A stretch of 64,000 nucleotides of DNA from Octopus vulgaris. Taxonomy: Eukaryota. The notes under the pieces were generated by a model. That model worked only from the letters and a program-made list of their open reading frames with translations. It did no database searches and was not told where the DNA came from. The translations under genes and the position numbers were made by a program. The stretch spans positions 24,738,001 through 24,802,000 of the forward strand of contig OX597838.1 in NCBI GenBank assembly GCA_951406725.2, in the 5' to 3' direction. Each line of letters begins with the position of its first letter. The stretch's first letter is position 1. This document shows, piece by piece, positions 19,538 through 51,119 of this stretch.

Positions 19538-19554
19538 TTTTCTACATTTGGCAT

Positions 19555-21034: not shown

Positions 21035-21166
21035 GGGCATCCAGCTGTAGAAACCATGCTGAAACAGACAATTGGAGTCTAGACAGCTCCCTGGCTGGCT
21101 GGTCGGCCGGCCGGCCCTAGTTAAACCATCCAACCCATGCCAGTATGGAAAACAATGACGATGATG
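21035..21166 (+). mobile_element. family C repeat
   Basis: GGGCATCCAGCTGTAGAAACCATGC...CCAACCCATGCCAGTATGGAAAA...GATGATG. Confidence 0.75.
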
Positions 21167-21194
21167 CGACTGAAACACTAAACCTTCTCTTTTG

Positions 21195-21392
21195 TTAACC
21201 CTTTACCATTTAAACTGGTCCTATCTGGCCCAAATATTCTGTTTTATGCTTAAACCGGTCAGATACAGCCTCTCACCTACCCTATAATGTCATTCTAAAA
21301 ATGAACGGATCAGATTATTGAAATCTTGATACTGCAAGACAATGTCAATAAGTATTACTTTTGACAGAGAAATTTGGATGCTGAAGGGTTAA
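21195..21392. mobile_element. MITE family D
   Basis: TTAACCCTTTACCATT...GATGCTGAAGGGTTAA. Confidence 0.85.
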
Positions 21393-22699
21393 GCCAACAA
21401 ATTTGAACGACACAATGAATCATAAATCAGAAACAAGATTCTACTCCTTGAAAACAAAAACAATAAAAAATTTAAATCTAGAATTTCAGGACACTGGCAA
21501 TGACAGAAACAATTAGTCCATAGTTGGGCGAGTTCAATTACACAGAGGGGTAAATAACCTATTAGGCCCCTTGTCTTCAACTCAGGCAAAAAGCAAGGGT
21601 GTTAAACATTGGTTTCTTTACTCTTCAACTGAAATTATAGAACAGGTGAACAAATGTGCCAAAGGAAAAATTCTGGCAAAATTCTTTGGTTGAACAGTTT
21701 CTTTGGAATACATCAACTGAATGCACAAGGAGAAGTCTTTCTTATTCACTGTTTCCCTATTCACATGGTGACAGTAATAAAATAAAAAAAAATATGAATA
21801 ATGTCATAGCAAAAACGTTCCAATCATAAAACCATTTTATAGAATACATTATTACATTCTAAAATAGCCTTTCTAATATTTAAAAGAAAAACGCTTTAGA
21901 AAAAGGGGAGTGAAGTGCATGTGGAAGGGATATGAAGGTCGTTAATTGAAATTGGAGAACAGAAAAAAAATCATATCTAAAGTGCAAGCCATTTGTAATA
22001 ATTGTTAACATCCTGTTGAAAATAATTATACACTCAAAAGTTAGGACAAAAAGGCAAGATCATCATAAATAACATTAACTGGAAGGTTTTTGTATCCTTA
22101 ATACATCAGTGAAAGCCAACAAGGATTATAAATTGGTTTTTCCTTATTTTATTCCAAAATCATCATCATCACCATTTGTCTCCATAATTGTTTTCTTTCA
22201 ATCTTGTTTTGACAAATATACAGTGATCTAAGACAACAATGAATTCAACCATTCGGAAGTAAATTACTCAGGCCAAATTCATTACACACACACACATATA
22301 TATATATATAACTCTTCTGATATGAATGCACTTGAAACAGCCCTTGGTCTAACAATACAAATAGTTTTAATGCAATCTAAATCAAAACCTCCCATCAAAA
22401 TTTATATTTAAAACATCAGCTTAATGACAAAATTATTTTGCTAAGCTCCTTCATTATCTTCAAAATATGGTAACAAAAGGTTTAAAGAACTAAAAGCTGT
22501 ACAAACAGTACAAAACTTGATCTGAGATCATGTGTCGAAACTGACAATTTCATCTTTGCAAGTCATGATGGCTATTTAAAAGGCACATACACATACCATT
22601 ATATTCAATTTTGTTTCAGTTTGTGATGATAAACACTTTTTTTCCTCATGTTTCTGACCCACTCAGAAGTGGACATGTACAAGACTGGTTAATTATACA

Positions 22700-23095
22700 T
22701 CTTTATATATAAAAGAGAGGTTGTGTGCTGTCTGTCTCCTTCGATTTAGATTCCTAACTACTCCCACATTTTGCAGTGCAGTTTAACCAAAACCGGGTAT
22801 CTTATAGTCGTGATTCATATCGAGCCCTTCTGGGTATTAGTGCGCGTCTACGATGAGTCTACGATTTAAAAAAAAAAATTACCATCAATTTTTCCTATTT
22901 TTAATGCATTTTTGGCATATATAAGGGAAGTAACTCTCTAAAAATTTATTAAATCTCAGAACGTAAAAAGCTACAGTAACACCCCCCCCCTTGTGGTTAG
23001 CCATATTGAGATGGCTATTATACTTTACATCTCTAAAAAATGCTTATATAGTTATTTCCCTTACAAACCCGAGCAACGCCGGGCGATACTGCTAG
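22700..23095 (+). mobile_element. non-autonomous Helitron
   Basis: A|TC 5' end, subterminal hairpin CCCG-AGCAACGC-CGGG, CTAG|T 3' end, no TSD. Confidence 0.85.
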
Positions 23096-23797
23096 TTAGA
23101 AAATAAAACAAAAGTGAATATAAAGAGGTGTGTGTATGTGGTAAATTATTCTAACTACCATAATAGTAAAAAAAAATTGAAATAGAAATACAGTTTGATT
23201 CCCTGGGAAAAAGTAAATGAAAACCTCAATAGAAGAGCAGAAAGAGATAAATTTAAGATTTACCTAGCATGTAGATGTTGTACAGAGAAAAAGTTCATAG
23301 GATGTTAATAGGTTCACTTGCCATGAAGAGTGGGAAGTATTGTGTCAGGCTCTTCCCACTCTGCACAATAATGAAACATCAGTAGTTTACCAATTCCTTT
23401 GGATTAATTATTACTGATGTAGGCCCTTGCAAGTTTCCTTGGATTTCAAGAACAACAGCTTCTGTGGCATAGGTTGAGGATTCGAAAGGATTCAGTGAGC
23501 CAAAAGACTCTATGAAACCCCAATGTTTGCTTTGGCATTGTTTCTGTGGGTGGAGGCCCTTTAAGATGCCAACCACTTTACTGTTCATTTAACAACCATT
23601 CCCCCCCCCCACGCCTGCTTGGGTTGGATCAGCAGTTATTTGAAATAGGATTTTATGGCTCAATGCTCTTATGTATATGTGTTTGCACAAAGTGTATATT
23701 TTATTTATATGCTAATATAAATATATCCTTGCTATGCAAATACAAATATCTAGCAAATTTATATGCAAATACACATTGTTACTGACAATTTGTGTAA

Positions 23798-24097
23798 TAC
23801 TCTCTTTACTCTTTTACTTGTTTCAGTCATTTGACTGCGGCCATGCTGGAGCACCGTCTTTAGTCGAGCAAATCGACCCCAGGACTTATTCTTTGTAAGA
23901 CCAGTACTTATTCACACAAACACATACACACATATATACGACAGGCTTCTTTCAGTTTCTGTCTACCAAATCCACTCACAAGGCATTGGTCGGCCCGGGG
24001 CTATAGCAGAAGACACTTGCCCAAGATGCCACGCAGTGGGACTGAACCCGGAACCATGTGGTTGGTAAGCAAGCTACTTACCACACAGCCACTCCTC
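23798..24097 (-). mobile_element. SINE family A, young copy with internal deletion
   Basis: Near-identical head and tail; lacks the CTATCGGTCTC...CTAGGGGGAC segment. Confidence 0.9.
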
Positions 24098-24649
24098 AAG
24101 GTTACTTTCATTTATCAGGGGAAAAAAACCCCAAAAGAAAAAACGTGCAGCTGCTTAAAGTGTTCAACTGATTCTGAAGCATTCTTAAATTCCTTCTCCT
24201 CCACTAACTGTTCCAAACTCTGATGTGATGGTATAATGTTAGACCATTAACATAGGAAGGGGAAGTTCCACTAAATCTAATTGTCTAAAAATAGTTTTGT
24301 TTTTCAAATAGTCAGGAAGTTTTCAAGAAAGTAAAGAATATTTCCAAGAGTCGTAATGTCTACAGCGGAATAGAAATTTAAGAATCAGCAGATGGACTTT
24401 GTAAACAATTCCAAACTTCTAATAATAGAAGCTCTCCAACAAGAATGTTAAGTTTAAATGATATATAATATATACTCAGGTGCATACTTCTGCCTTTTTG
24501 CATACATGTGCACAAATGCAGGCATTTAAGTGTATGTCTATACATGTGTTCATCCATCAAGTAAAATGTGATGCGAAAGATGGGCAGTGAATGGCAGACG
24601 GAGAGAAAGAAAAACAAAAAAAATCAATAGAGAACCAGACAAAGCATTT

Positions 24650-24799
24650 TGTGGCTGTGTGGTAAGAAGCTTGCTTCTCAACCACATGGTTCTGGGTTCA
24701 GTCCCACTGTGTAGCACCTTGGGCAAGTGTCTTCTATAACCTTGGCCCAGCCAAAGCCTTGTGAGTGGATTTGTAAGGTGGAAACTGAAAGAAGCCCGA

Positions 24800-24864
<65 letters not shown>

Positions 24865-25058
24865 GTTTGTTCCCTCACTGCTTGACAACTGATGGCATGT
24901 TTATGTTCCCCATAACTTAGCAGTTTGGCAAACAAGACAGCTAGAATAAGTACTAGGCTTAAAAAGCAATAATTCCTGGGGTTGATATGTTCAACTAAAA
25001 CCTTTCAAGGTGGTGCCCCAGCTTGGCTGCAGTCAAATGACCAAAACAAGTAAAAGGT
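24650..25058 (+). mobile_element. SINE family A with internal (TG)n(TA)n
   Basis: Full-length head-to-tail similarity. Confidence 0.9.
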
Positions 25059-25098
25059 AAACCTTTCCCAAATCAACTTTGCTTTTCATCCTTTGAAC

Positions 25099-25359
25099 CA
25101 GTGGTTCTCAACCATTTTTTTTTTTTGCCAGTGGACCCATTTCATTCCTATTTTATTCTACTGGACCTCCATTGGCAGTCACTGTATATAAAGAAATGTA
25201 TATAAAAAATTTTGCTGTATTTTTAGGAGTAAATATATCAGGAATTGCATTAAAACAAATTGTCAAACTATTTTGTGTTTTGTACAAGTAAATAACCAAT
25301 TTATTGCACATAAATTTTAACATTAAAATCTTATAACGGGCTTCGGTTGAGAACCACTA
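25099..25359. mobile_element. hAT-type MITE inserted in a SINE B remnant
   Basis: TIRs CAGTGGTTCTCAACC / GGTTGAGAACCACTA; degenerate 8-bp flanks CTTTGAAC / CTTTTAAT. Related copies at ~17944-18120 and ~54524-54740. Confidence 0.8.
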
Positions 25360-26183
25360 CTTTTAATGATGATAAAATGTATAACATACCAATCAAACGC
25401 AAGAGATCAATATAACTGACTTAGCAATTGAAAGCAGCACAACAGCGTGAGCAGAGACCAATGACTGAAACCAGTATTAAAAAGAAATAACCAAAATATA
25501 AAAAGTGGATGGCAATGATGACAAAAGATATGTATATACAGTTATTGTTGTTGGAGCATTTGATAGAAGCTGCAGTCTATCTTGTCTGTCATCAATCTCC
25601 GACAAAATGAAAGAGAAGCTTTAAATGTAGAGTCTAAAGGCCTTGTATGCTGACAGATGACAGATTTTTACATAAGTTTTAATGGCTGATCATTATCAGA
25701 GTCGAGTTGAGAGATGCATGACATTAAAGAAATAACATTACTGGAATTTTGTGATGTAGATAAACTGATTTGTAGTTGGTTTCAAATGCAGCCAAATTTA
25801 ATTGCATACCATGCCAATGAAGTAAAATAATCTGATATTTCTTTAAAAAAAAAAAAAAAAGAAAAGAAAAGAGATAATGAAAAATTCACCCAGCATTGAT
25901 TGCTAAGGTCATGGGAAGTGAAGGCATAACATTTCTGCAAAATAAAGAAGACCAATCATACACACATGAGTGTGTACATGTTTACATATGTGCCTGCAAA
26001 AGTAACGTGCAATGATTCTTCTGTCATTTCTCCTTTTAACAGCTCATCCATTCACTGAGTGTCTTCAAAGAAATAAGCGATGCTTTCTCGAAAAGCAGTT
26101 AAGGATGAGCAACAGGAAAGGCACCTAGTAGTAAAACAAGGCCTAACCCATGCTAGCACAGAACATATAAAACTACTGGATTT

Positions 26184-26380
26184 ATTACTTTTTACTCGTT
26201 TCAGTCATTTGACTGCGGCCATGCTGGAGCACCGCCTTTAATCGAGCAACTCAACCCCAAGACTTATTCTTTGTAAGCCCAGTACTTATTCTATCGGTCT
26301 CTTTTTGCCGATCTGCTAAGTGACGGGGACATAAACACACCAGCATCGGTTGTCAAGCAATGCTAGGGGGACAAACACAG

Positions 26381-26439
<59 letters not shown>

Positions 26440-26601
26440 TATATACGACAGGCTTCTTTCAGTTTCCGCCTACCAAATCCACTCACAAAGCTTTGGTCGG
26501 CCCGAGGCTATAGTAGAAGACACTTGTCCAAGGTGCCACGCAGTGGGACTGAACCCAGAACCATGTGGTTGGTAAACAAGCTACTTACCACACAGCCACT
26601 C
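26184..26601 (-). mobile_element. SINE family A, young full-length copy
   Basis: Full-length, CpGs retained, internal (CA)/(TA) microsatellite. Confidence 0.9.
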
Positions 26602-27605
26602 TGTTTTATATTTATTTTCCATAGCAAGTTGATCTTTAGAACGTAATGAAAGGTTCTTTCACAAATGATGAGAAATGTTTTATTTTACATATGAACATTT
26701 TAAAATAGGCAGTTTTCATAAAATAACTGCAACCAAGTGATTTCAGGTCAGTTTGTAATGAACAATCAGCATAAATCGACAAAACAAATGTATTTATTTT
26801 CAAACAGATTAAGTGGGATAAAGGCCAGAGATGTTTAGGATAGCCAGATTAGAAGATATTAGACAAAAACTAATACAAAAACAAAATAATTATGTAACAC
26901 ACCATAGGAGCTCTAAGTTAATTTTAAATGCTTAGCTATTAGTGTAATTTAAACCCTAAAATTATGTAAACTTATTTGCTTCGTGCTGTGTTAAGACTTC
27001 CATCCTGACTGCACACATACCAACAGATTAATTTTCAATGAATGAATGAATGAATAAATTATATACACAAATTTATACAAACATGACTAGAGTTTGTGAG
27101 GCCTTGCCTTACTCCAGAGCTGAAAGAGAGTCTCCTATATTGAAATCATGATCCTTTGACCCGAGATCCATATGCTCACTTTTTCATGTTTTTCTTATAC
27201 AAAATTAATTAGCTTTTAATTGAAGGTAACTAAGAGAGAGGACACTGAGGAAATTGCAAAAAATAAGATGCAATTAAAAAAAAAAATTAAGCAGCCAAAC
27301 AAGGAACTCACTGGAATGATGACGTCATTGCCATATCAAAGTAATTTAAAATGAACAGGATGCTTTATTTTATGTAGATTACTATGTCACTGTGCTGTGT
27401 TCAAATAAAGTCTGGATAACTTCAGTTTTATATCCCCACCCTACAAATCCAAAATTATAAAGAGTACAACACAAAATGTACCGTGGCCATAAATATATAT
27501 TTATGCTAACTGGAGCATAGACATTCTAAATTATAAATGTTGGCTTAGTTACTGCTGAACTTTACTGTCAGTAAAACGGTTGGTTGCTTGAGAGAGCTCA
27601 ACAAA

Positions 27606-27661
<56 letters not shown>

Positions 27662-28174
27662 CGTGTACACACACACATATATACACATCCAGGGTGGTAG
27701 ATTGTTGGAAAGTTAGAGTGCCAGATGAGATGTAGTTTCTGTTCTCCACTCAAATCCTGCCTCCTGTCACCAGTAACAACTGGATCCTTTGGGATAGGCT
27801 CAGGACATCCTTAAGCAATTGCCCAAGTATTTCAGCTGACCACTCTTAATCCCTGCACACCAAGTCACATGCTCGCTCTCTTTCTCTCTCTCATTTATAC
27901 GAGAGTGAGAACAAAATGAACTAAAAATGCTTCATGGGATGTATTTCAATACGTCAGAGTTTCAAGTTCAAATCTAACCAGGTTCAACCAAATTAGCCTT
28001 TACATCCTTCTGGGTATCAAGATAAATGTAAGAAATTAAGGGCGAATCCCTCCATTCCTCACAAATCATTATCCTTGTGTCAAAAAGGAAATCATCAAAA
28101 TCCATATGAGCTACCAAACTTCAGTAAATGATACTGGATATAGCAGCACAATGAAGACTTTATAAAATGACAGG

Positions 28175-28500
28175 ATCATCACCATCATTTAGTGTCCATC
28201 TTCCATACTGGCATGAGTTGGACAGTTTGACAGGAGCTGGCCAGGCAGAAGATCACACCAGGTTACTGTGTCTGTTTTGACATTGTTTTTATGGTTGGAT
28301 GTCGTTCCTAACACCAACCACCCCACAGAGTGGACCGAGTGCTTTTTATGTGACACCAGCACAGGCGAGGTCAGTTTTGGCATGGTTTTTCCAGCTGGAT
28401 GCCTTTCCAAATGCCAACCACTTCATAGTTTGGACTGGATGCTTTTTTTTTTTTGTGGCACCAGCACAGGTGAGGTCACCAAATAACTTGCAAGACAAAG
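28175..28500 (-). mobile_element. family C repeat with internal duplication
   Basis: Two successive GGATG..TTCC.AA..CCAACCAC...CACCAGCACAGG.GAGGTCA units. Confidence 0.8.
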
Positions 28501-29649
28501 ATTTTTTAAATGTTTATAGAAATGATGTCTCGTAACAAGGCAGAAGTCCACTCTTGTTATCAAGCGAGTAAACTCCAAATAATCACTGTTACTTATTTCA
28601 ACTCCAAACATTTAAGTGCTGAACCAGATACTATAACTATTGCAGGAATTTAGGTAAAAATTACCAATACAATGTAATGATCGTTGGTGTACGTAATGAA
28701 AATTTTTTTTTACCCATTATCATGCCACTTTTACCTGGTTGAGTAAGCTGAATACAGGTAAGTTGATTCATGCAGATGTAATCATATATTTACGAGATAT
28801 CAATTTTCTGGGTGTTGATTTCCTGTTTCAGAGCTAAACTTGTGTTCAAGTAATCTCTGTAACTTGGAAGCTGCACAACTCTTACTAGAAAATTAATTCT
28901 GAGGTACACCATCTCTTTCAATGATGTTGCATAGTTAATGTGCACTCATCCTAATAAAATATTTTAGGCAAAGTTGAAAATATTTTATGGGTTTTGCTTT
29001 TTAAGTTCAAAAGATTTTGTGGGGGTTCACATCATTTATGAAAGCAGTAATGCAATGATCAAATATATAATCCCTCAACTCTTGCTCAGAATTCAATAAA
29101 TTCCAATATCAGATTGCAAGTGTGCACAGACGACACTGAAAGGTCTATTTTCTTCAAGTTCAAGCCTTCATCTAATTAAATCATTAGAAAATGAATTATT
29201 AATATCAAATTTTAACTTGCCACTCGAGATATACTTGCCATGATGCTTGAAAAAATGTCAAAGCATGAAATACAAACATACATGGTGGCAACAGGAAGTC
29301 TTCTGACAAAGTTCCTTTTAAAATGAAACTAAATTTCTCACATAGAAGAGCACTCACTGTTTTATGGCCCAAAACACAGCTCTCTTTCCAGCAAGGCCTA
29401 CAGCTGTCCTCTTGGAAACACTGGTTTGGTGTATTTCTTACAATAATCTTTACTAAAAGCCAAAATGTCTCAGAAGCATATTTGCTGTTGTTCTACTGAA
29501 TAAATAGCTAACTTGCAGAGTTGCTCTGGTGTCATAGTGTCAGTGAAGTATTCAAAGATAATTATAATTTTATAATTCAAAGTTGACAAACAGGACTGAA
29601 AAACAAAAAGGTCCAAGAGTCAGCATTTAACTGGTAAGATGAAAAATAT

Positions 29650-29840
29650 TCTAATTTTGTTACAAGGCCAGTAAATCCGAAGGGAGGGGAGACAATTACA
29701 TCAATTCCGGTGTTTGATTGGTACTTGATTTTATCAACTGTGAAAAGATGAAAAGCAAAGTCAACCTAGGTGGCATTTGAGCATAAAATACAAAGAGCCA
29801 GAAGAAATGCTAAGTATTTTGTCAGGTGTAGTAACGATTA
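29650..29840 (-). mobile_element. SINE family B, diverged
   Basis: GATGAAAAGCAAAGTCAAC central motif. Confidence 0.7.
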
Positions 29841-30370
29841 ATAAGTATGTTCTGAGAAGGTGGAATGCTAACACACATCGCAACAAAAACATGATGGATT
29901 AGCAAAAAAGATGCCATAGTGTTGGCTTGTATAGTAAGTGTTACAATACTAACATAGTGAGTTGAGTGCCTAACTACATTCTAATTATTTAAAGTGTATA
30001 GAGAAGGAATGAAATGTGATAGGTTTTCTAATCAATGCTCAAAAGCCCATTGTAAGGAATTCTTGAAATTGCACCAAGATAGTAAATTACAGTTTAGTTT
30101 CAGCCATAACCAGTTACAGAAGGTTTTTAACCCTCTGCCAGTCCAAAATATTTTCATAAGTATTCTAAACATCCATGATTATTTTCAGACTTTTGGTTAG
30201 CCCTTGTTTCATACGTTCTGAATAACAAAGCTTTCCTTTCATAAGTCCCAAGTGGTTTTTTAAAAAAAATCTACAAATGTATATCATAGTATGGATGCCA
30301 GGGAAATATTTCCTGCATATCACATGCAATACACAGGACAGGTAAAGGGTTAAGAGATTTAAATATTCAG

Positions 30371-30621
30371 TGACTACAGAAGACCTGGTCAGTGAAAAAT
30401 AAAATCGCAAGGTATTGGGATGAAAGTTGAGAAATGTTGCTCAATTAATCATTTAAAATGTATTTTTAAATGCTTACAGAAGAAGAATACATAAAAAATG
30501 TTTCTGACTACAGAAGACCTGGTCAGTGAAAAATGAAATCACAAGGTATTGGGATGAAAGTTGAGAAATGTTGCTCAATTAATCATTTAAAATGTATTTT
30601 TAAATACATAAAAAATGTTTC
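30371..30621. repeat. tandem duplication (134 + 117 bp)
   Basis: TGACTACAGAAGACCTGG starts at 30371 and 30505; copy 2 lacks 17 bp. Confidence 0.95.
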
Positions 30622-32403
30622 AGCAAAACTTCAACTATATTATGAAGAAAAGGAGATATCAATAAGATATCTAACATGAATCTAAAACAGTTTCAGTCAA
30701 CAACATATCTAATAACTAAATGATACTGAGAACAAAGGAACCACAACGTAGTTGATTGATATTCTAGAGATAGTTGCAAAAGCTAAGGGGTTAATTTACC
30801 CTTCTTAACATGGTAAAGTATAAAAAGGGAGATTTGGCTACTGTTCCTAAAAGCAAGAGTCTATACACGGATACTATTGTTGGTACAATAACTTGCGTAT
30901 ATTAAGCTAGTTTACATACAAAAATTTCTTACATAAATCCAAGACAAAAATTTACTAATGCATCTCATCATACACAAGATAAAATCATTTGGTTGGGAAT
31001 TAAATTTAAATATTATTGTTAATCAGACAGGTTGATATTCAAAGAATTGGCCACTACAAAACTTACAAGAATGAATAATTTTGACAAGAACATATTTTTT
31101 TTCATTTAGAACTTTTCACTGAATTATAAAGTTACAGTTTGATCTACAGATCAATGATTGAACTATAAACAACATAGATTTCAAATGGTTTGTTAGATAA
31201 ACAAACAGGATATAAAGTACACACAATCAGTACATTCACGGATTCAGATATTCAGCAAACGTGTCGCTGCAAGAGATAAACATTTTACGCAATAGTTTTA
31301 ACAAAAAAATATCATGGATATTATTGTGCCCACCATTGAAAATTGGCACACCTTTTGAATTCTGACCAATAGCCATAGAAATTACTTTAGCTGCCAAATA
31401 CTCCTAACACTGCTAAGGCTATTTCCAGAAACAAATTTCTATGAAAAGAATAAAATAAAAAAACCTTGAAGCATTTAGCTCACCACTCCTTCCTGCACAG
31501 TTTAATCATTTGGACACTATATCACAATGAAAGAAATAAACTATCTGAGAAACCATTATTTCAGTAAATAGTTTTAATAATAGCTTAGCATGGAAATAAT
31601 TGATGAGTTCACAGTTGCTAACTAGAACAACTGGAGAAATATGACCCACACCATAGAAATCATTTTAGCTACCAAACATAGCTAATAATTGCAATATGAT
31701 ATTAAAGGAGGACAAGCTCAAGGACATCAACATTGAGACCAATATAAATCCCGATTGGAAATCAATACTGAACAAAAATTAGAGTTGAGAAATGACTGTA
31801 AAAAAACAAACAAACTATAGGGAATATTTTCTCACTCACTTTTTGTTTGTTTTGCTCTGTCAGTGGAATAAATCAACGACGCAATAGAAGCTAATTTTAG
31901 ATTTAGTAAACAAATAGATTTGATAGGTGATAATGACTACGTAAGCAATAGATAAGGACGACTATCGAACGATGACAAATGAACCAACAGTCAAGTAGAA
32001 AACAGATGTTACTACACGAGTACTAAAATCCATTGTATCTAGTAAGATACGTCTGAGGGAGTTACTACTGGGTTGTGTTAATGTTGAAGTCAGTCCTGAT
32101 TGAGTAGAACAAAAATCAAAAGGCAATTCAGCCACGACCATCATGACTTTTTTAGAGACACTGTGCAATGGTGTCTTTTTCCCGCCTTACTCAAGATAGC
32201 AGGGTGTAACTTGGAGGAATTAAGCTGCTGTTTTTAGGTAGTTGAATCACCACATAGACATCCTTCTTTGCTTGGTCCCCCACCTCCCGAGTTGTTAGCA
32301 GTAAAGAAAAATCAAAATAAAACGTTTTTCTTTGGGGTGGGGGTAGGGTTTACAAATGCTGCCAACAAAACATGTTTACAGTTCTATATTTAAGAGATAA
32401 GGA

Positions 32404-32621
32404 ATTATTTACATTATTTACATTTGACGGATATTTGTCCACATTTTGTTTGTTCGATACCAGGCGGTGAACCTGAATAATAATATCGAAACACCTTAGG
32501 AATGAGAACCCAGGTTCGAAATTTCTCCAAGACACCTGATGAAGGCTGGAGGGAGTATCAGCCGAAACGTTGTGCTAACAACAAACAAGAGGAGGACAAA
32601 TATCCATCAAATGTAAATAAT
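32404..32621 (+). mobile_element. Penelope-like element terminal-repeat remnant with an inverted partial copy
   Basis: Contains the hammerhead. Ends are inverted: ATTATTTACATTTGACGGATATTTGTCC...TTGTTTGTT and AACAAACAA...GGACAAATATCCATCAAATGTAAATAAT. Confidence 0.65.
32531..32576 (+). ncRNA. minimal type I hammerhead ribozyme motif (Penelope-like)
   Basis: GACAC-CTGATGA-A-GGCTG(loop)CAGCC-GAAA-CG-TT-GTGCT. Catalytic boxes, stem II and the palindromic AACGTT stem III are present; stem I has one mismatch. Confidence 0.7.
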
Positions 32622-32657
32622 ATAAAAAAGGTTACATAAAATTTGACACAGAATGAG

Positions 32658-32845
32658 GATCATCATGTGTGTCTTCCATGCTGGCATGGCTTAGATGACT
32701 CAACAAGATTAGACAAGCCAGAGGATTGCTTCAAGCTCCTGTGTCTAATTTGGCATGGTTTCTACAGCTAGATGCCTCCCCTAACATAAACCACTTTACC
32801 GTGTGAACTGGGTGCTTTCTTTTTTCCATGGCATCAGCACTTGTA
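32658..32845 (-). mobile_element. family C repeat
   Basis: TTCCATGCTGGCATGG...TTGGCATGGTTTCTACAGCT. Confidence 0.75.
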
Positions 32846-35189
32846 AAACACACACACACAAAAAAAAATCTGAGTTTAACCCCAATTCATTTTATTTCTC
32901 AAAAGGTCATATTGTTAAAAAATGAAACATTGATAAAAAAAAAAAGAGAACCTATATACAAAGTCATGAGATACATCAAGAAATCATTCAACTTCAATTA
33001 ACTACTCTTATTTTGACATCCAGTTTTGCCTGATGTTGTTAATGCTTTTGATATATCTACTCAACCACAACTGGCAGCAAACACAAAAACTAGCTGCAGG
33101 GTAAGTATTTGAGAAAAAAAAACAAAAAAAACAGCACCAGTAAACATGTTTGACTAGATCCAAGTCAAACGTGTTTGTCCTGTTAATCATGTGACATTTC
33201 AGAAACAGTTGGGTTTCGGTTATTTTAAATTGTATTATAACAATATGCTACCAAGAGAAACTATATGAAACTGAGCCAACGAAGAGTACAAATATATGAT
33301 CACATGACTTGCAGTAATATCTGCCTTGAATCATACCTACGATCTTATAAAAAGAAAAGGGCAAACATTTAGATAATGTAATTCAAGAAGTATTGCTGTA
33401 TTTTTTTTTTTTGCTTTTTCAGGACAATGGTTTGTTGCTGGACGATGGCCATGTTTGAAGCAATGTCTTCAAGAGTTATAGACAATCATATTGGCACCAG
33501 CACTTAGTCTGGTACTTCTTTCATTGATCTTTATTGAATAGATAAGCTTGCTTTTAAAGTAATGTAAAGATACCAGTTTATACAGGTATGCCTTCCACTC
33601 ACAATGCACTAGTCAACAGTCAACTTGTTCAAATACTCTGAAGTGAAACCAAATCTAACACCATGGGATTACAAAGCAAAACTCTTAACCACATAACTAC
33701 AACTTCACCTATGTGGAATGTTTGAAAATAAGGAAAGGTGGCTGCAGCTACATTTTTTTCCTATAAGGCTGATAGACTGACCTCGGGTCAAATAATGACA
33801 CAAAATCCAAAGTGGAGGTGTGTACCATGTTAAGTATGACAAGTATGAAATACAAATGTAGCAAGTATCTTTTTGCATTCATTAAATTACAGGAGTAATA
33901 TTGGAATTTCTTCAAGTAATGAAACTATTTTGGTGATGGTAGGAGTGAGAAATCAAGAAGAGACCATTCCTCTCCATGCTATATCCAAAGAAGTTGAACC
34001 TGGAATTGAGGTGAGGTGAAATTTTACAGTGTTGTTCATACACTGATTATGCTGCCCCAAAACCCAGGTCAGCCCTTACTAAACAGTCCCATAATCAAAA
34101 GCTTTCCATCAATAACCACCCTGTCCTACTGAGTATCTTAGACTATATTATTCAATAATAATTTGAAGGATAGTGAGCTGCCATTTCTAGCAAACTGACA
34201 GGTTATATAGAGCAGTCATGGGCAACCTGTGACCTGCAGGACTTTCTAAATGGCATACCCAACAAAATATTATTTTGAATTTTTTTTTGTTTAGTAATGC
34301 AGTCCACTTGATGAAGAGCAATGTCTCATGTAGCCTGCTTCTTGAAAGATGTTACCCATTCATACCTAGTATAAAGATTCCAACACTATTTTAAGCTAAG
34401 AGCACCACTGGGCCATTTAAAAAACTGAAGTGTCTTGATTCCAACCACAACACACTACCAAAACACAAACCAATTTCCTTTCATTTAGGGGTCCCAGTTA
34501 CCCTATTTATTCAGTAAACTGCACCACTGAAACATAATATTGAAAAGGAGAAATGGTAAATACTGTGATTGGCTCTGAAGTAGGAAGATTTAAAATAACA
34601 TCTTAGAATTTACTGATCTTAAGAGGGCATTCAAATGACTGAAGTACAAGGAGGGCACACATATGGTTTGGGCGTTTTTCTCTGTCTCTACTCATCCATA
34701 ACTTTACATTAAACCTGCTTAAAAAAATACTTCCGAATGTTTATATATACACAAATATATACACTAACACACAAAAATTATTAAAGTTACACATGCATAG
34801 AAACACCCACTAAAACTTACACACACACACACACGATATTTTGACAAGAATGAAGATGGGTTAACCCTTTTGCTACAAATTCCTTACACTGGCTTAATGA
34901 AAAATCCTTATTTTAAACTACTTGTATTTCAATTAAACTACTTGTATATTCAATTAAAACCTTCCAGCAGTTTTATCTTCAGAAATCTTCCAAATGTTTC
35001 AAAATCTAGCTTCATAATGAAATGTTGCACTAAAATCACTCCAAATTCTTCATTACATTAAAAATTAATTGAAATGCATAATAGGTAAGTGTGTTTCATT
35101 ATAAATATGGTTATGAAAACAGTTAGGGTTCCTTAACTTACTCATAGAAGCACTAGTTATTTGGCCCCAGATTAGCCTGATACAGCAGT

Positions 35190-35476
35190 TGTTGTTTGCT
35201 CCTTCTTGAGCCACGCCTGGCTCATAGGGCCAGTTTCCTTGGCATATAGGTTCCCTACCTGGACGAGAAGCCGGTTCGTTGCAGGTGAGCTGCAAGGTGC
35301 AGGAGGAAAGAGTGAGAGAAAGTTGTGGCAAAAGAGTCAGCAGAAGTTTGCCATTACCTTCTGCCAGAGCCACATGGAGCTTAGGTGTTTTGCTCATAAA
35401 CACCTGGTCTGAGAATCGAACCCACGATCCCTTGACCGCGAGTCCGCTGCTCTAACCACTAGGCCATGTGCCTCCA
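35190..35476 (-). mobile_element. full-length tRNA-derived SINE with (AAC)n tail and 13-bp TSD
   Basis: Head GGCACATGGCCTAGTGGTTAGAGC...GGGTTCGATTCTC. TSD CTGATACAGCAGT at 35177-35189 and 35477-35489. Confidence 0.9.
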
Positions 35477-35721
35477 CTGATACAGCAGTACAATGATCAA
35501 AGAAGATATTTTATCTGTGATCATCTCTTACTTTGACAGTATTTAGGACTGCATTGTCCAATGCGTCCTTTTTATGACAGAAGATTGCAATTTGAGGACA
35601 ATTCAGATGCTGTTACTAACAAGTTGAGTAACCACACAGGCTGCTTCACCTTCATGCCAAACCAAGTCTAACTTGCAACAAGCACTCCAGTCAATATGTG
35701 CATTCCAGTTACAAGTCCACC

Positions 35722-35830
35722 TAGTCACATGCACAGACTAGTCACATGTGGCACATGCACAGACCAGTCACATGTGGCACATGCACACTCCAGCCACAAG
35801 CCCCCCCCCCAGTCACATGCAGCATACACA
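35722..35830. repeat. 26-bp minisatellite rich in CACATG
   Basis: AGTCACATGTGGCACATGCACAGAC repeated. Confidence 0.85.
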
Positions 35831-36862
35831 TTACCCTAAATACTGATATTAAGAACGCTTGCTAATAAATGCTACAGGTGGCCTATCGCTGTCTTATACT
35901 CTTAGATACAAAAACCTAAAATTTATACACAACAATTTACAAAACAGAATCTGTTTATTTTAATTAATGCCTTAATATTGATTATAAACTAAATAAATCC
36001 GAATATGTCAGAGTGTTAAACCTTAATGAATAGTCTCGTTATTGGACAAAATAACCAAATACTTTCAGAACACTTCATAATAACACACTGTAACAACATA
36101 CTATAATAGCATAGTGTCACTAGAAATACTTTTGTAATCCAATCTTAAAACAGTCTATTTCACACTGATTTCAAACGCACACACACTTATCTGTTTGAAT
36201 GTTTATAATGAAGTCCTTGTTTTGTGTTGGTGATTAAATATTTGCTTTTGGTACTAATCATCTTACCAGTCACCCAATGGAACCAAGTAGATTTACGAAA
36301 CTTAGTTTTGGAAACTTAATATTCTTTGATGGTTTTTTTTAGGCAAAAAATTTGTTTTACTTTTACTCAGAGGAGGAAGAGTGGCATTTGTGACCTTTTA
36401 CCAGGGTCACATAAATTGGTGGGAGGAAAGAGGAGGAAATTTCAACCCTCAGACATGTTCTAAATATTTGAAACAGTGGGGAGTGGGTGACTTCACGGAA
36501 TCACAGAATAGTCCACCCAATAGGCCACCACAGTTTTCTGTTGGCACGATTTCATTAATAAACTTAGAGTAACATGAGGCTATGGAAGAATAAGGCCCCA
36601 AGGTGCCAATCAGATTGAATTTGGAATCCAATGACTGCAACCCAGACTACTACTTGCTCGCAACTTAGCATCCAAAGTTTATGCTTGAATAACAAAAACC
36701 CCACGCTCATTCACCCTCAAAATATGCTAAGAAACACAAATGGGATAACATCTGACAACTAACCAAGTGTTAGTTTTAGAACTGTATTACATTTTCTCGG
36801 ACTGATTCAATGAACTCTTTGATGAAAAAAAATTCCCTGTAGCACTTAGCTACATTCTATGA

Positions 36863-37225
36863 TTAAACTTTTATCATTTAAACTGGCCAATATATTCTAC
36901 TAGTTTTATTCTCAAACTGGCCAAATCTGGTCTCACACCAACCTACAATGTCATTCTAAAAATTAACAGTTAGCTCATCAAAATCTTGAAACTACAAAAT
37001 GTTGTTGGCATCCTTTTTTGTCTCGGGAGACAATGGAATTGCGCATAAAATAATCTAGTCTGGCTTTTACATTTCATGTCCTAATACATCTGCTGTGGCT
37101 GTGTAGTCTTATCCTGGACAAACACTCCCTCTGGCAGGTGCCGCAAATGTAGCGAAGACTTTTAGTTCAAAACAATGAGAATAAATATGATGATTGATGG
37201 AGAAATCTGAATGCTAAAGGGTTAA
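36863..37225. mobile_element. MITE family D containing an RTE fragment
   Basis: Right TIR AATGCTAAAGGGTTAA; body shared with family D. Confidence 0.8.
37000..37162 (-). mobile_element. RTE (BovB-like) 3' end inserted in a MITE
   Basis: Minus strand YICGTCQRECLSRIRLHSHSRC (C-terminal zinc-finger-like motif) and CCATTGTCTC...GGATGCCAACAAC tail. Confidence 0.75.
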
Positions 37226-39265
37226 ATTCACCTGGACTCACTGTGTATTTCATCTCTTCAAGACTAATAAAATGTACACCAGCAATGTACTGAACGAAGC
37301 TCTCTCAACTACATTCAGCTTGTGCCACAGCTGAAAATATACTTTGAAATTGAGGACAATGTCTACAAAATTTGAAATTGAATTGATAAAATTATGAAGG
37401 ACATTACAAAAGCCACTTCTTTCAGGCAGATGTTAAGAGAGGTGTGGGGAAAACTTCAATGGTCAATAAAATCACAATGAGCAGTTTGTTTCTATAAAAA
37501 GTAGTTGCAGAGTGAGTGATATGTAATTTTGACTTTGCCCAGTCGCATAATGAAGTTGAAAGAAATATTTCAACACTGAAGATAAAATTTTATCACAATG
37601 CAATTAGTAATCTGAGCTTGTCAACATAATGGTAGTGTCGGACTTAATTCTATGTTTAGATCTAATGCAGGTTAATTTAACCTTTTCATCTGTAAAAGGA
37701 AAACAAGAGTGGCAAAACACATACAATATACTAGGGTGAAAAACCAAAACCAACACTTGGGGTAGAAGCACAAAGTGTTTAAAAGAGATAAGGGTTAGGT
37801 CCAACACCAATAAGCATAAAATCCTGCACATGAATTGATTCCTTCATCACTTCTTCAGCAAGCAGTGAAGGCCATACTTCAGTGTCAGGAATTGCATCTC
37901 CTGTATTTCTCATAAAATTGGAAATATTAGCAATTAAAGTTTTCTTTATTTCTATTTAAATTGCTTTTGTTTTTTGTACTGCTGGGTGTGCTAAATAAAC
38001 TGACACTAATTAAACTATCATATCTAAATGTTCTATTGATAATTACATTTCTTAATGTTGAATTCATTGGGTGAGTTTCAAACAGATCTGTAGCTAGATA
38101 ATTGGGTTCTCTCAGAATGGAAACAATGGCTAGATAGTAATAACAATGCAGTCATAAGTCTGGCTACAGATTAAGGATTAAGAAGAGGGTAAAAATCTTA
38201 AGAGGGGAATAATTTTCTTTTCCATAATATAGAAGAAAATCCAAGACGCCAAAAATATCAAGAGATATCTGTTTCAGCTTAGTTTTAAGTGGGGAAAATG
38301 ATAATGTCTGTGTTCTAAAGAAATAACTTGAATGATATCACCTTTAGTTCTCTTGTGCATCATACATACACATGAAGCATAAGGCACTAATTAGCAACAC
38401 ATTATTTTACAGGACTAGGGTAAAAGATTTCTGAAAGAATCTGTGTATACATAAGTGTGTGTGGGCATCATATACACACATATGCATATGAAAGTAATAT
38501 TTTGGAAATAAAAATCGAGATAGAAATGATAAGAAGAATGACATCCAGACCCATGTAAGTCCCTATTTAATGGTGTTTACTTCCAACTGAATGGCGTATT
38601 GAGTCATACGGACCAAATGAGGTTTTCTATTCTGATGTGTTCCTTATGCAAGATTAGAAGAGTTTCAGACAACTATTGCACACTGAAGCATACAAATGAT
38701 TCATTTGCATCAACAACATGACATTTAAATTTAAAAAGAAAAAAAAAAATGAATTAAAAAATATAAACGATTTGAAATATTAATTTTCTAGTGTTTGACT
38801 AAACAATTTCATTGTGCTGTCTGTTAGTCAATTTCCTAAAGAATTCTCAAATCACAATGGAATCTTTACAAATTTATGAGATACACAGTAACGATCAAAT
38901 ATATCTGAAAGAAATTCCAGCAGAAAATGAAATCTGTTTAAATGCTCAACTGTATTTTCAATAGACTTCTCAATTAATTAGCATTATTAATGATAACTCT
39001 GCTACTCTTTTTATTTATTTATTTAACCTGTCTTGGAAAAAGAAGGCTTTGAATCAAATTTTTTTTTGTTTTGTTTAATCTTTTCCAGTTTGTATAAAGC
39101 CTGATCAAACCAAGGAAGGATTTAATTTCAAAATCATAAATCCTTGTAAGTGCTGGAACACACTCATCTGGTCTTTGAGTGCACTATGTTCCATTTAAGT
39201 GCACTACGTTCCAAGCATTCAGACCAGTTCTCCAGCTTCTCTGCCCATAGTTTTACTACAGATGT

Positions 39266-39479
39266 TTAACCCTTTAGCATTCAGATTACTGTCAAATGTA
39301 ATGCTTATTTATTAACATTGTTTTGAATTAATCATGCATTTATTGCATAGCTTTGAGATTTCAATGTGATTATTTTTTAGACTGACATTGTAGAATAGGA
39401 GTGAGAGGCTGAATCTGGCTGGCTTGAACATAAAACAGGAATATTTGGGCCCAATACGACTAGTTTAAACGAAGAGTTA
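39266..39479. mobile_element. MITE family D (opposite orientation)
   Basis: TTAACCCTTTAGCATTCAGATTAC start. Confidence 0.8.
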
Positions 39480-40209
39480 CGTTGGGCTACATCAATTTCG
39501 TTAGTTAGGAAAAGATCTGTAAAAGCCATATGCAGTACCACTTCCTAACTTATAGCTAAAAAAAATTTACAATGTCAATTTTGCCTTTCGTCATTCTAGG
39601 ATAGATTGAAATTCAGTCAAACAAATAATAGGGTTGATTTAATCAACTACAGACCCTTTCTCACCTAACTGTGGGCTTGTACTTATGTTTCAAATTCTTA
39701 TATAAATTATAATTGAGATTATTGAAAGTAAACAGTTATTTAGCTATATTATGATTTAAGTAAGACCCAATGCCGAATAAATTCACCAAATTCATCAAAA
39801 ACATCTAATCAACAACAGAAATATGATTATCAACAGCAAAATCTACAAAGCTAAGACCTTTGTACATTTTGCTGAAAGGCAAAACATACTAGAGAACAAC
39901 AAACTTATAATCGACCACCCAACTTCACCACCAATTAATTATGTAATATAGGCAAATAATATTAAGTCACTGACTTGGCCATACAACCAGCTATTTGAGT
40001 CTAATAATAACTGTTTCGTTTTTTATCAATAACGAATGTGTCACATATGGTCACAGCATTTAAATAGATTTGTTTAAGGAAAAAAAAAGTCATATCTACA
40101 TTAATAGGTTGACCAGATAACAGACCTACATAAACTTTAGAATAAAAAAAAAATGATAGGATGGTCATTGTTGGAACACTTTATCAGGACTAACTAAACA
40201 ACAAATTAA

Positions 40210-40415
40210 CATTGGTTGTAAAGTGGTGGTGATGGAGGGGACAAACATGTAAAGACACACACAATAGGCTTCTTTCAGTTTCCCCCTGCCATATCCACTC
40301 ACAAGGCTTTAGTTGACCTAAGGCTATAACAGAAGGCACTTACCTAAGGTGCCACACAACAGGACTGAACCCAGAACCATGTGGTTGGGAAGTAAACTTC
40401 TTACCACACAGGCAA
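40210..40415 (-). mobile_element. SINE family A, 5' half
   Basis: GGACTGAACCCAGAACCATGTGGTTGGG head. Confidence 0.8.
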
Positions 40416-42142
40416 TTCTTAGAGTAAGAGAAAGAAAAAAAGGAGGAAACAACACACCAAGAATTAAGTCTACTCGTAATCTATCTTACAAGAGACCAAA
40501 CAAGTCTGAAGTGTTAATTATAATAACAGCTAGTTATATACAAATAAGTTATAACACAGAAGTTGCCATGAAAAATCACTCTCAAATTACATGCCCTACT
40601 GATCAGAGCTGACCGAGTGCTCAACAACAATAAGTTTTATTACTCCAAGTCTGCCCCCTCTACAGTATCAATTTAAACATACAAAGAGGAATTTGGAATA
40701 TTCTCCTTTTTCTATATAATATTCAGCTTACTCCATAATCAGCTGGTTAGATCTGGCTTGATCCTCGAGGAGACAAACACACACACAAACTTGTTTTTCA
40801 TTATGAAAACAAACCCAATGAAATACAGATGCAGTGTGTGGAAACCTATTTTAATCTATAACATATAAAAACTTATTATAAACCGTAAACAAATGATCCC
40901 ACCGCCCCACTAAACTCTTTGTGCAAAGCTGAAGTTAAACAAAGAAAGCTGTGTCATTGAAATATAATTTCTCTTAACTTGAAGTGTATGTATTGGCAGC
41001 AAGGACTTTCATTGTTTTCAAAATAAATTCCATTTCAAATGCCCACGATGTTATTGGTTTATTATACTGGGGAAATACAATTCATTCATATCAAACAGGA
41101 ACTCTGGGTTCAACCTCAATTGGTAAAAATGTGTGTGTGCGTGTGTGAATGATGGTTAAGCATCATCATTTAGCATTCATTTTCCATGCTGGTGTGGGTT
41201 AGATGGTAAGCTGGAGAGTTGTATGAGGCTCCAGAAAATCTGCCTCAACAAATTCTATCTGGCCCTTGCAAGCATGGGAAAAAATGGACATTAAACAAAT
41301 ATATTACATTATATACACAATGCCATACTGCATGTACTTCATTATAACTATTGACTACATTTTGACTAATTAAAAAACAGTCATCAATGTAACTGTAGAA
41401 TAATTTCAGAAGATAGCTGAAGGTTTGTTGTCAATTACTAATAAGAACTTCTGTTGTCGACACAACTCAAGAGTGAAACTGCAGTGTAACAGTAATTCAA
41501 GGGACCAGTTTTGTTACATTGATAGTGCCTGAAGATGTCATGGGTACATGTGCTTGAGAAATACTCAGCCACTTAATACAATGAGTAGGTGGCTCAGTTG
41601 ATCAAAGAACAGGGATGCTCACTGTAGAAAACCCGTCTTAAGATAATGCAAGCAGCTACTGAAAGTACACACCATTTGGAGACAAGATTATATTGAAGAC
41701 AAGTGAAAACACCATTACAGACTATATGTACAGTGCATATGATACATTGGTGAAAACTAAACACACACACACACACACTATCCTGATAGAATGGAAAGAG
41801 CTGAAAGAAAAGGACAGCAAACAGGAGTCTGAAGCAGACAATTATTAACCCATTATTACAATGTTCACCATGGTACCCTTAAATAAAATAGAATCTGGAA
41901 GACAAGTGGGGTAACAACAACAATAACAAACAGTTGTTGAGAAGCTGATGGATGAACAAAAGGCATAATTCAAGTATGCTTGCAGATTGTTATCTGATGT
42001 GTCCTTCCTGTTTCTCAAGACTGAGATTCAAAAGATTTGGCTGCTTTTAATAAGTCAGTCAACTACACAGAGGTCGATCAGATTGAATTACCAAGTTACT
42101 GCAATTTGATAGTGCTGGCTGTAGGTGGAATTTTAGAATAAA

Positions 42143-42488
42143 GTTGTGGCTGAGAAGCTTGCTTCCCAACCATTTGGTCTTGGTTCAATTCCACTACATG
42201 GCACATTGGGTAAATGCCCTCTGCTGTAGACCCAGAAAACCAAAGCCTTGTTAGTGGATTTGGTAGATGGAAACTGAAAGGAGCTGTGTGTGCGTGTGTT
42301 TGTGTGTCCATTACTGCTTGACAACCAGTCTTGCTTTGTTTATGTTCCCACAACATAGCAGTTCAGTAAAAGAGAATACTAAAAAGGGGGAAAAAGTACA
42401 GGGATCAATTTAGTCAACTAAACCTTCAAGCTAGTACCCCAGCAAAGCCACAGTCTAATGAATGAAACAAGTAAAAGAGAAAAGATAA
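42143..42488 (+). mobile_element. SINE family A, diverged
   Basis: Head and GAAACAAGTAAAAGA tail. Confidence 0.8.
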
Positions 42489-44180
42489 GTGAACCTAACA
42501 CAATGGAAACTGAGCTAGAAATTCAACTATTATCAAATCTAAACTGCATCCATCATCAATGGCTTCTGCTCCCTTGTATATCTTCTCTCATGTTAGCCTA
42601 GCATGTCTGTAAAGAGCATGGACATAGCTCATCTTCTGGTTAATTAAATAAAAAACACTCCAGAAAATACCGCTGCTATCATATTGGTCTTGAGTGGTTC
42701 ACAATGGTAAGTACTAACACCAGACCCTTGACTCTCTCAACAGATATATTTTAAGATCTTGAGGTTGTCAGTTGCATTAATTTCACCTGTTTAAGAGGAT
42801 CTGCAAAAGGTCAAGGTTTGACTAACATACAAAAACATGAATTAGGTTAGAATGTTAATTAAGAAAGGAATTTCTATTTCCATAAAACAATTAGCAAGAC
42901 AACTTAAATATCATTAATTCCAGAAGACTTTTTGTTAATAAATTACTAGCTCTCTGTGAAAACAATCACAATAAGAAGAATGTCACAAATTGACACACTA
43001 ATAAAATAGAATTTAAAAAAATTAAAAGATTAATAAAAACAAGACATTAATAAAACATATCCTTCATAAATTAACATTGATAAAAAAAAAAAATACTAAA
43101 AGGTTTCTTCAGAATGGAAAATATCTGAGAAAGGTTTCTGTTTCTAGTCTTAAAAAAGAAACAAAACAAGAATGGGCAGTGCTGTTAAATGTATGGAATA
43201 TTGCTAATAGAAGAAGGAGCGTACACATATGAGTGTGTATGTGTGTGTGTAATAGCACATCGGGAATATCAATGACGGCAACAAAACTAGCAGGAGCAGG
43301 CAGGCAGCAACAGTGTTTGGAATCAGTTGAAACGATGAATTGGCAACCATCCACTCCTTGACATTGGCATTCAAAGACTGGGTAACGCTAGTAAAACAAG
43401 CAGCTTCATTCACAGAGTTCATTATTTTAACATGTACAAGAAATAAATTTACCAATATTGTGTTCACAACATTATTTTCAAAGTGGCTTCCATAAAATCC
43501 TCTGTTTTTCATTTGCAGCAACAACAATAAAAATGAAAGCATTAAAAACAAACAAAAAAAAGTGATGCATTCTTAATTAGCTACATTTAGTTTCCTAGGT
43601 GCAAAAGATGATCTGGGATATGAAGATTAAACCAACAACTGCAGTTATTGCTGATTCGGGGTCAATAACACCAGCACAAGGACACCAATATTGCAGGAAG
43701 TAAACAACTCTACTGCTGCGAGTGTGTCCCTCATATAGTTAGACCTGTTAGAAACGGCAGCTAAATCTGTCTCAAATCACACTATCACCGAAGATAGGAA
43801 AAGACATGGATAATCTAGTCCTAGTCCTACATGCCCCTAACACTATCACCATGGCAAGAATATTTTTGATCATAGGTCTCCTAGGATTAGAGCTGAATTG
43901 GAAGTACATAACAATAACAAATGGTGCTTTATTTTATTGACCCTTGGAAGGATGAAAGGCAGCAAAATTATCCATCCTAGCACATGAATAACTAAATACT
44001 GTCAAGCATTTTTCTCTGATGTCCCAAGGAATACACTGTAGCATCATATTAAATATTAAGGGTCCAGTCTAATCATTTTATCTCCATTATGATACTTGTA
44101 AGGATAGGAAAATATAATTCGAATATCAGAAGCTGACAAGTTATCGAAAAATAGATTAAAAGGTATACAGAAGAATCGGC

Positions 44181-46530: not shown

Positions 46531-46565
46531 ATTAATAAGTACGGCCACATGTTTGCTACATATAC

Positions 46566-50629: not shown

Positions 50630-50693
<64 letters not shown>

Positions 50694-51118: not shown

Positions 51119-51119
51119 A

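Follow-up and report, generated by a model that had tools for sequence, protein, structure and literature searches.

A fold-back hammerhead insertion in the Cdc42 gene of Octopus vulgaris as a near-certain remnant of a Penelope element whose tRNA-derived head is a likely Pol III start

The hammerhead motif in the window analyzed here, a stretch of 64,000 nucleotides of the Octopus vulgaris genome (assembly GCA_951406725.2, contig OX597838.1, positions 24,738,001 to 24,802,000), lies in an insertion that is almost certainly a remnant of a Penelope pLTR, and since most copies of the family begin at a tRNA-like start signal, the element was likely copied from Pol III RNA. Pol III normally makes only short non-coding RNAs, and in the usual split autonomous retrotransposons use Pol II (or co-transcription by Pol I), while only short parasites use Pol III. 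Our overall reading of the sequence data, which we regard as fairly probable, is that a Pol III head starts a SINE-like pLTR RNA and possibly the full template as well, and that the arms of the copies were produced by two-strand priming. If Pol III did transcribe the full unit from this head, the usual split between Pol II and Pol III would be broken, the element would possess a route by which it spawns its own SINE, and the question would be raised how an uncapped, ribozyme-bearing RNA gets translated.

BLAST comparison with the majority sequence of the family placed the insertion at 32377 to about 32624 of the window, with its start at 32377 and not at 32404, and the following features were distinguished within and around it.

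32377..32454, minus strand: inverted arm, the 3' end of the Penelope pLTR (unit positions 188-265) with the optional tail; 78 nt, 94.9% to the family majority by BLAST
32377..32409, minus strand: Penelope tail of about 32 nt, confined to the inverted arm and corresponding to residues ~43-54 of the parent ORF by continuity into that ORF
32452..32454: head-to-head junction, a 3-nt microhomology (GTT) common to both arms, which overlap there
32452..32624, plus strand: sense arm, the pLTR truncated at its 5' end (unit positions 53-232) and without tail; 173 nt, 89.5% to the family majority
32452..32475, plus strand: remnant of the tRNA-derived head, consisting of the B box (one change) and the 3' strand, the A box being gone by truncation (alignment to full-length copies)
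32476..32484, plus strand: (AAT)3, a run whose length varies across the family and which is a frequent 5' junction point
32502..32639, plus strand: 45-codon frame, the N-terminus of the parent RT/GIY-YIG ORF, running through the hammerhead and ending in flanking DNA
32531..32576, plus strand: minimal type I hammerhead motif with a predicted cut after 32571, in which stem III is solely an intermolecular ACGU palindrome
6604..60360, minus strand: host 5'-UTR intron of Cdc42, 53.8 kb, bounded by the 6603-to-60361 splice that contigs of probable RNA runs show

A preliminary description of this DNA had correctly recognized the fold-back, while the dimensions it gave, an element of about 220 bp with inverted ends of about 40 bp, did not hold: the paired part of the two arms amounts to 50 nt at 88%, and the ~32-nt tail is absent from the right arm. 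The statement that the element contains no ORF was misleading, since the ATG at 32502 opens 45 codons, the first ~41 of which represent the N-terminus of the parent ORF. The tRNA-derived head, on the other hand, could not be seen at that stage because the A box is lost in the window copy. Structure prediction for 32404-32621 returned the fold-back itself (z -8.1), in which the hammerhead is unformed, and inspection by eye revealed no obvious target-site duplications at the window copy.

The first coding exon of Cdc42 occupies 6476-6580 on the minus strand, and contigs from all four probable RNA runs splice 6603 to 60361 with GT..AG ends, which places the insertion in the 5'-UTR intron of Cdc42 with the hammerhead arm antisense, as had been proposed. 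The non-coding first exon of Cdc42 has its end at 60361, likewise on the minus strand. The next Cdc42 intron, which lies outside the window, contains a GIY-YIG piece of the family that is 373 bp long and without hammerhead (L063:1778-2150); it shows 94% to the majority and is also antisense, so that both family pieces within Cdc42 have this orientation (n=2, one of them without the hammerhead). In the Cdc42 pre-mRNA, the arms at 32405-32454 and 32580-32629 would pair into a duplex of ~50 bp, a possible candidate substrate for A-to-I editing. Having no A box, a mismatch in stem I and an antisense position, the window copy is most likely a dead passenger, which agrees with the earlier suspicion that it may be inactive.

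Since 28 of the 30 best GIY-YIG copies continue from the ORF into the same sequence, and since the tail runs on into a typical Penelope ORF N-terminus, this sequence is the pLTR of an autonomous-type element and not, as first suggested, a separate non-autonomous family; in L125 and other loci, GIY-YIG coding sequence lies directly 5' of the pLTR unit. Alignment of the copies yielded a pLTR unit of 264 nt composed of the A/B-box head, (AAT)n, the hammerhead and a 3' end with or without the ~32-nt tail. The majority element comprises 2,647 nt in the order ORF stop, 29 nt, tRNA-like head, (AAT)n, ATG, hammerhead, two alternative 3' ends ~32 nt apart, and the remaining ORF. Its reading frame of ~835 codons (132 + 703) opens ahead of the hammerhead, and its stop codon is separated from the following head by 29 nt; both parts are in frame with the commonest length of an A run (16 of 40 copies), and an apparent frameshift was rejected as an alignment artefact. 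A separate SINE mobilized by Penelope was rejected as well, the head being continuous with the end of the ORF: the tRNA-SINE test showed that the short unit is not a family of its own and is also the pLTR of the ORF-bearing element.

The single ORF encodes an RT followed by a C-terminal GIY-YIG domain, the latter assigned by motif and homology, with no GIY-YIG call by Pfam on a 112-aa piece; among its 81 homologues nearly all carry RVT_1 and a few PF01541. The reading frame through the hammerhead is homologous in a 53%-identical relative (P0005), and the linker is without the Cys cluster (Neptune/Nematis zinc finger) seen in the Neptune element of the same genome. In a FastTree analysis of 78 sequences rooted on Neptune, which included Anolis and Schistosoma proteins and no reference clade set, the family was found among Penelope/Poseidon-type proteins. 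A first look at the genome returned 3,413 candidate relatives of the window copy, 40 of which were scored, and calibration of exact word counts indicated ~28,000-29,000 pLTR arms genome-wide. With a median divergence of 5.8% from the majority (34 alignments) and no intact full ORF among 150 GIY-YIG matches, the longest open frame being 452 aa, the family is probably extinct or nearly so. Its pLTR sequence is present in contigs of probable RNA runs, which carry no strand, start or cut-site information. Relatives were found in none of the viral contigs and in two genome contigs, probably as contaminating pieces.

The A/B-box head with which the pLTR begins is tRNA-derived. Among 30 genomic tRNA loci its best match was tRNA-Arg(TCG), with a score of 64 compared to 40.6 +/- 3.9 for 300 shuffles (maximum 60), the isotype being uncertain since the comparison was limited to these 30 loci of six anticodon families. 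ARAGORN at default settings called the head as a tRNA in 0 of 17 loci; under relaxed settings it was folded as a Ser(ACT)-like partial cloverleaf with a broken acceptor stem, and the head is thus degenerate. Likewise, Rfam returned no tRNA match on the window, a fold-back copy, a clean head or the distant relative L337 described below.

The 5' ends of the copies converge on this head. Exact words of 20-22 nt occurred genome-wide 9,734 times at position 194 (near the 3' end), 3,735 times at the A box, 843 times at position -29 and 593 times at position -238, corresponding after calibration to ~28-29 thousand, 12-14 thousand, 1.7-3.2 thousand and 1.1-1.4 thousand, respectively. The step persists in the calibrated counts; the fall is 4.4-fold at the 5' edge of the head compared to 1.4-fold across the next 210 nt upstream, and pLTR words are altogether ~10-20 fold commoner than ORF words. 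Upstream element sequence was absent in 33 of 40 head-selected copies, and three of the other seven look like duplicates; the 40 were drawn from the first 45 listed head matches, and the remaining five were likewise without upstream element sequence. All sampled family loci, a collection in which ORF copies are over-represented, gave 161 heads: element sequence extends further upstream in 48, the junction is palindromic in 53, and neither applies to 60. None of these 60 non-continuous and not obviously palindromic junctions matches the element beyond -8, and eight stop at the G at -6, in each case (8/8) preceded by A and never with an extra G; five of the eight are jumps into the ORF. Overall, the 5' ends concentrate in the 0-7 nt ahead of tRNA position 1, many clean junctions retaining 3-6 leader bases upstream of +1 and some falling at +1 or +2. 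None of 70 exact junctions from pLTR to ORF start extends into an upstream ORF end, a result that rests on few informative copies since only ~7 of the 70 reach the head (nine pattern matches, two of them spurious by eye); the same 0/70 applies to head-to-tail partial tandems (ORF end, pLTR, ORF), an arrangement that has been described for Penelope as frequent and is not obligatory. In several chimeras (L427, L428, L437, L448, L470) the pLTR is copied to its 5' end and preceded by an ORF-internal piece, consistent with a template jump of the RT at the 5' end of an RNA. A palindrome at the edge of the head, GCCC-AC-GGGC, could stall the RT or seed snap-back. The majority of copies resemble SINE-type products made from a short RNA whose start is the tRNA-derived head.

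Pol III terminates at runs of four or more T. The sense strand of the majority element contains no such run (T4) in its 2,647 nt, whereas 4.8 were expected from base shuffling (P=0.006), 2.6 from synonymous shuffling of the ORF (P=0.034) and 2.6 from dinucleotide shuffling (P=0.054), P values that are modest. The Neptune ORF of the same genome contains nine T4 at equal T content, and 42 other Penelope loci, which are not independent and in many cases share source studies, contain 233 compared to 149 expected (1.56-fold above). The low-T subset of these loci predicts 4.8 T4 for the unit (Poisson P=0.008), and zero T4 was found in three of 44 other Penelope loci, each shorter than 1.7 kb. Five of six single-copy ORF stretches of the family, again not independent, are without T4. 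Runs of four G are absent from the unit, too, and other Penelope loci are G4-poor as well (35 vs. 64 expected). The family and its closest relatives (P0001-P0006, P0024, P0027, P0055, P0062) have some of the lowest Phe contents among 76 homologues (2.6% vs. a median of 3.6%), which may reflect avoidance of T runs.

An A box, a B box and an AAT run were also observed between ORF stop and hammerhead of a distant Penelope relative on a metagenome contig (L337, 2757-3020). This relative forms a tandem unit of 2,791 nt, its ORF starts just before the hammerhead core, and it contains two T4, both near the ORF start, compared to 6.1 expected, and no T5. Its tRNA likeness is weak (z ~3.2), and one of 17 scored control spacers equalled this z without possessing the boxes.

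On this evidence, a Pol III start at the head appears likely, while synthesis of the full ORF-bearing template by Pol III is proposed tentatively, at somewhat less than an even chance. Pol III would start near G(-6), matching a pre-tRNA leader; from every pLTR whose head is intact it would make a short RNA of ~270 nt with some flank added, and from the head at the 5' end of a full unit a terminator-free RNA of ~2.9 kb. The RT/GIY-YIG protein would then nick both strands of AT-rich DNA, and each nicked strand would prime cDNA synthesis from either of two internal sites of the RNA, steps that are modeled on the account given of Poseidon_Ac (PMC11167929). The two cDNAs would finally join 5'-to-5' by microhomology and form a fold-back with the tail on one arm, as in the window copy. 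In its strongest form, which we advance with reserve as falling short of an even chance, the proposal is that of an autonomous 2.65-kb unit made by Pol III from a captured tRNA promoter, with an ORF purged of terminators, in which each intact pLTR would act as a built-in SINE, a design that would have at least one counterpart in a distant lineage of Penelope elements (L337). What counts against such a reading is the difficulty of translating an RNA that has no cap and carries its start codon 5' of the ribozyme cut site.

Alternatively, Pol III might make the short pLTR RNA only, as an internal SINE, with the ORF templates and the protein coming from host Pol II read-through. The Pol III head is common to this alternative and to synthesis of both RNAs by Pol III, and the sole difference concerns the long RNA. 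The ~10-20 fold excess of pLTR over ORF words agrees with it, as it explains the surplus of short copies; translation requires a cap or a substitute, and the processivity of Pol III has been held to limit such elements to ~1.3 kb (PMC10886601, with regard to TRIMp3). However, a role restricted to short RNA leaves a T4-free ORF of 2.5 kb without a reason, and those ORF-start copies that reach the head stop there. We consider a split of this kind rather doubtful, though a serious contender.

Less likely still, and in our view improbable, is an ordinary Pol II Penelope element that captured a tRNA-derived SINE head once in its spacer. The head would now be a relic, the sharp 5' ends would result from stalling or snap-back of the RT at the GC-rich palindrome or from a chance Pol II start, and the lack of T4 would be a compositional accident. 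The degenerate cloverleaf, the snap-back junctions at 53 of 161 heads and the concurrent absence of G4 runs fit this scenario, and so do the internal LINE-like promoter reported for Drosophila Penelope (PMC2377424) and the palindromic head-to-head junctions described as common in Penelope elements (PMC3846280). Yet thousands of ORF-end copies (843 exact words) demonstrate that the RT can pass the palindrome, the jumps from G(-6) to unrelated ORF positions suggest a true RNA end, and the eight junctions ending at -6 are without an extra G. Moreover, other Penelope loci are rich in T4, and similar boxes occur in L337.

The defined 5' end might also have arisen by processing, if a longer Pol II transcript were cut at its tRNA-like fold in the manner of RNase P. 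The junctions at +1 or +2 and the partial cloverleaf obtained with relaxed ARAGORN would be compatible with such a cleavage, but the many clean junctions that keep 3-6 leader bases upstream of +1, together with the broken acceptor stem, argue against it, and the missing T4 runs would be left unexplained; we regard this origin as very unlikely. The slightest chance is given to a stand-alone non-autonomous retrozyme family that spreads via circular RNA and is kept antisense in introns by selection against pre-mRNA cleavage, which is largely refuted as to identity: the valid minimal-hammerhead motif, the majority of short copies, the antisense position of both pieces in Cdc42 and occasional direct repeats of the pLTR (as in L106) speak for it, but the sequence possesses no part beyond the pLTR of an ORF-bearing element, the copies are single or head-to-head instead of arrays, and the 5' ends gather at two points upstream of the cut, the tRNA head and the AAT run (in a sample with intact core, in which starts at the cut site are invisible).

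Head-to-tail arrays of the retrozyme type, an arrangement that the preliminary description had suggested looking for, are thus not the rule in this family. An inverted partner was present for 46 of 92 sampled arms, defined by an exact hammerhead core and taken as first listed on one contig (C1), a sample in which starts at the cut itself cannot appear; this frequency of partners on the opposite strand limits what the antisense position of the two Cdc42 pieces can say about selection. Of 36 fold-back pairs in which both 3' ends could be scored, 33 had a single tailed arm, two had the tail on both arms and one had none. Inverted partners with a truncated 5' end and a one-sided tail of 30-40 bp are described marks of Penelope elements (PMC8557442, PMC3846280), and the fold-back is such a known inverted 5'-truncated junction and not a pair of terminal inverted repeats. 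Sixteen of the 92 arms begin at the (AAT) run, often fused to the (AAT)n end of another repeat; copies of this kind are numerous (for example L112, L120, L122, L123 and L126) and suggest AAT microsatellites as insertion sites.

For Poseidon_Ac of the green anole, it has been reported that both target strands are nicked and extended, starting at two internal sites that bound the tail, and that the hammerhead is protein-assisted and dispensable for insertion in vitro (PMC11167929). By analogy, the simplest inference is that each fold-back arm represents one cDNA of the Poseidon_Ac type, and the hammerhead is probably not needed for insertion in the Octopus family either. The arms, which number tens of thousands and end at two fixed points on the 3' side and one on the 5' side, would then constitute an in vivo record of two-site, two-strand priming, which in the Poseidon_Ac report was seen in vitro.

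The hammerhead motif itself was confirmed letter for letter with respect to core, stems and GUU triplet. CUGAUGA occupies 32536-32542, followed by an extra A at 32543, and GAAA lies at 32564-32567, the palindrome ACGU at 32567-32570 and U17 at 32571. Stem II is formed by GGCUGG (32544-32549) and UCAGCC (32558-32563), i.e., 6 bp including one G-U, and stem I by GACAC (32531-32535) and GUGCU (32572-32576), i.e., 5 bp with one A.C mismatch that is private to the window copy, C32575 being T in the family majority. The original assignment to the Penelope-type minimal type I hammerheads with palindromic stem III, carried by a repeat family, was upheld: the features given for these ribozymes in PMC4209133 are present, namely the core bases, an extra base after A9, the G10.1-C11.1 pair, a palindromic stem III and a helix I of 4-5 bp. 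The exact 39-nt hammerhead core of the family occurs 1,218 times in the genome compared to 0 for the reversed control, and a general minimal-hammerhead descriptor run on both strands of 302,968 nt gave 15 matches (the window motif, 13 Neptune-end copies of one motif and one other), so that the motif is not a product of chance. Of the checks proposed at the outset, a comparison with the Rfam hammerhead models gave no score on the window motif or on a fold-back copy. Within the family, no compensatory changes in the hammerhead stems were seen. Other Penelope ends possess a different stem II that still pairs, having been chosen by a descriptor that requires pairing.

Among 64 arms unselected for the motif, all 11 core bases were kept in 31 and the palindrome in addition in 16, a pattern of conservation that fits selection in source elements followed by neutral decay after insertion. 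Position 7, which is free in the hammerhead consensus, is the sole strongly variable non-CpG site (30% A), and this variation fits equally well a conservative Asp/Glu change in the overlapping ORF. Folding of a 56-nt dimer by RNAcofold did not return the active fold, a run that carries no weight either way. According to PMC4209133, PLE minimal hammerheads are inactive as monomers and weak as dimers, and the present motif is likewise predicted from its sequence to be weak and dependent on a dimer or on protein. The ribozyme in itself shows nothing new, and both it and the fold-back are known from Penelope elements.

As far as the published descriptions extend, the family resembles the Penelope/Poseidon PLEs Poseidon_Ac (PMC11167929) and Adineta Pen2a (PMC3846280) in having a single RT ORF with C-terminal GIY-YIG that starts in the pLTR, a hammerhead near the start codon, an inverted 5'-truncated partner, a one-arm tail of ~30 nt and AT-rich targets. 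Unlike them, it possesses an A/B-box head, sharp copy ends at this head and no T4; the promoters described for Penelope/Poseidon elements are, in contrast to this head, Pol II-like (TATA/Inr or LINE-like). With the minimal hammerheads of metazoan PLEs, as presented by Cervera & de la Pena (2014; PMC4209133), the motif shares the core, the extra base between 9 and 10.1, the G10.1-C11.1 pair, the palindromic positions 15.2-16.2, the short helix I and opposite-strand motif pairs 100-700 bp apart, whereas its helix II comprises 6 bp instead of the 7-8 bp given there for Schistosoma and its triplet is GUU. The animal non-LTR retrozymes, as characterized in PMC7229834 and bioRxiv 10.64898/2026.07.22.740005, similarly have a type I hammerhead within a short unit that is akin to a Penelope pLTR, but they are head-to-tail non-coding arrays, while in the Octopus family an ORF adjoins the unit without a break and the copies occur singly or head-to-head.

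The nearest precedents for the head among the sources compared are the SINE-like hammerhead repeats of schistosomes and the non-autonomous TRIMp3 elements. The Schistosoma Sm-alpha and Sj-alpha repeats, as summarized in a review (PMC6765202), also place a Pol III-type promoter ahead of a hammerhead in a short repeat; they are tandem and SINE-like, whereas in Octopus promoter and hammerhead lie within a protein-coding element whose copies are head-to-head with Penelope tails. The TRIMp3 elements Helenus, Ajax and Cassandra (Kojima, 2024; PMC10886601) likewise carry a Pol III promoter derived from a small RNA in a retroelement terminal repeat, but they are described as non-autonomous LTR elements of up to ~1.3 kb whose autonomous partners are argued to require Pol II, while the Octopus head is located in the ORF-bearing element itself. 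In the literature, taken mainly at the level of abstracts, no Penelope element with a tRNA head or a Pol III promoter was found, and repeat databases may already describe the family.

Two further hammerhead-bearing repeats were observed. One is a second hammerhead repeat family of 21 loci (L267-L294) with a 4-bp stem II, a T-rich sense strand and some fold-back copies, in which no tRNA head was recognized by eye and no match to the Penelope family protein was obtained by tblastn. The other is represented by the Neptune elements found with PF01541, which were rejected as partners of the present family because they share no tail with it and have a different hammerhead. A young Neptune-type Penelope family (L031-L062) has many intact frames of 781 codons, and its 3' end carries the U3-A8 core variant of the minimal hammerhead.
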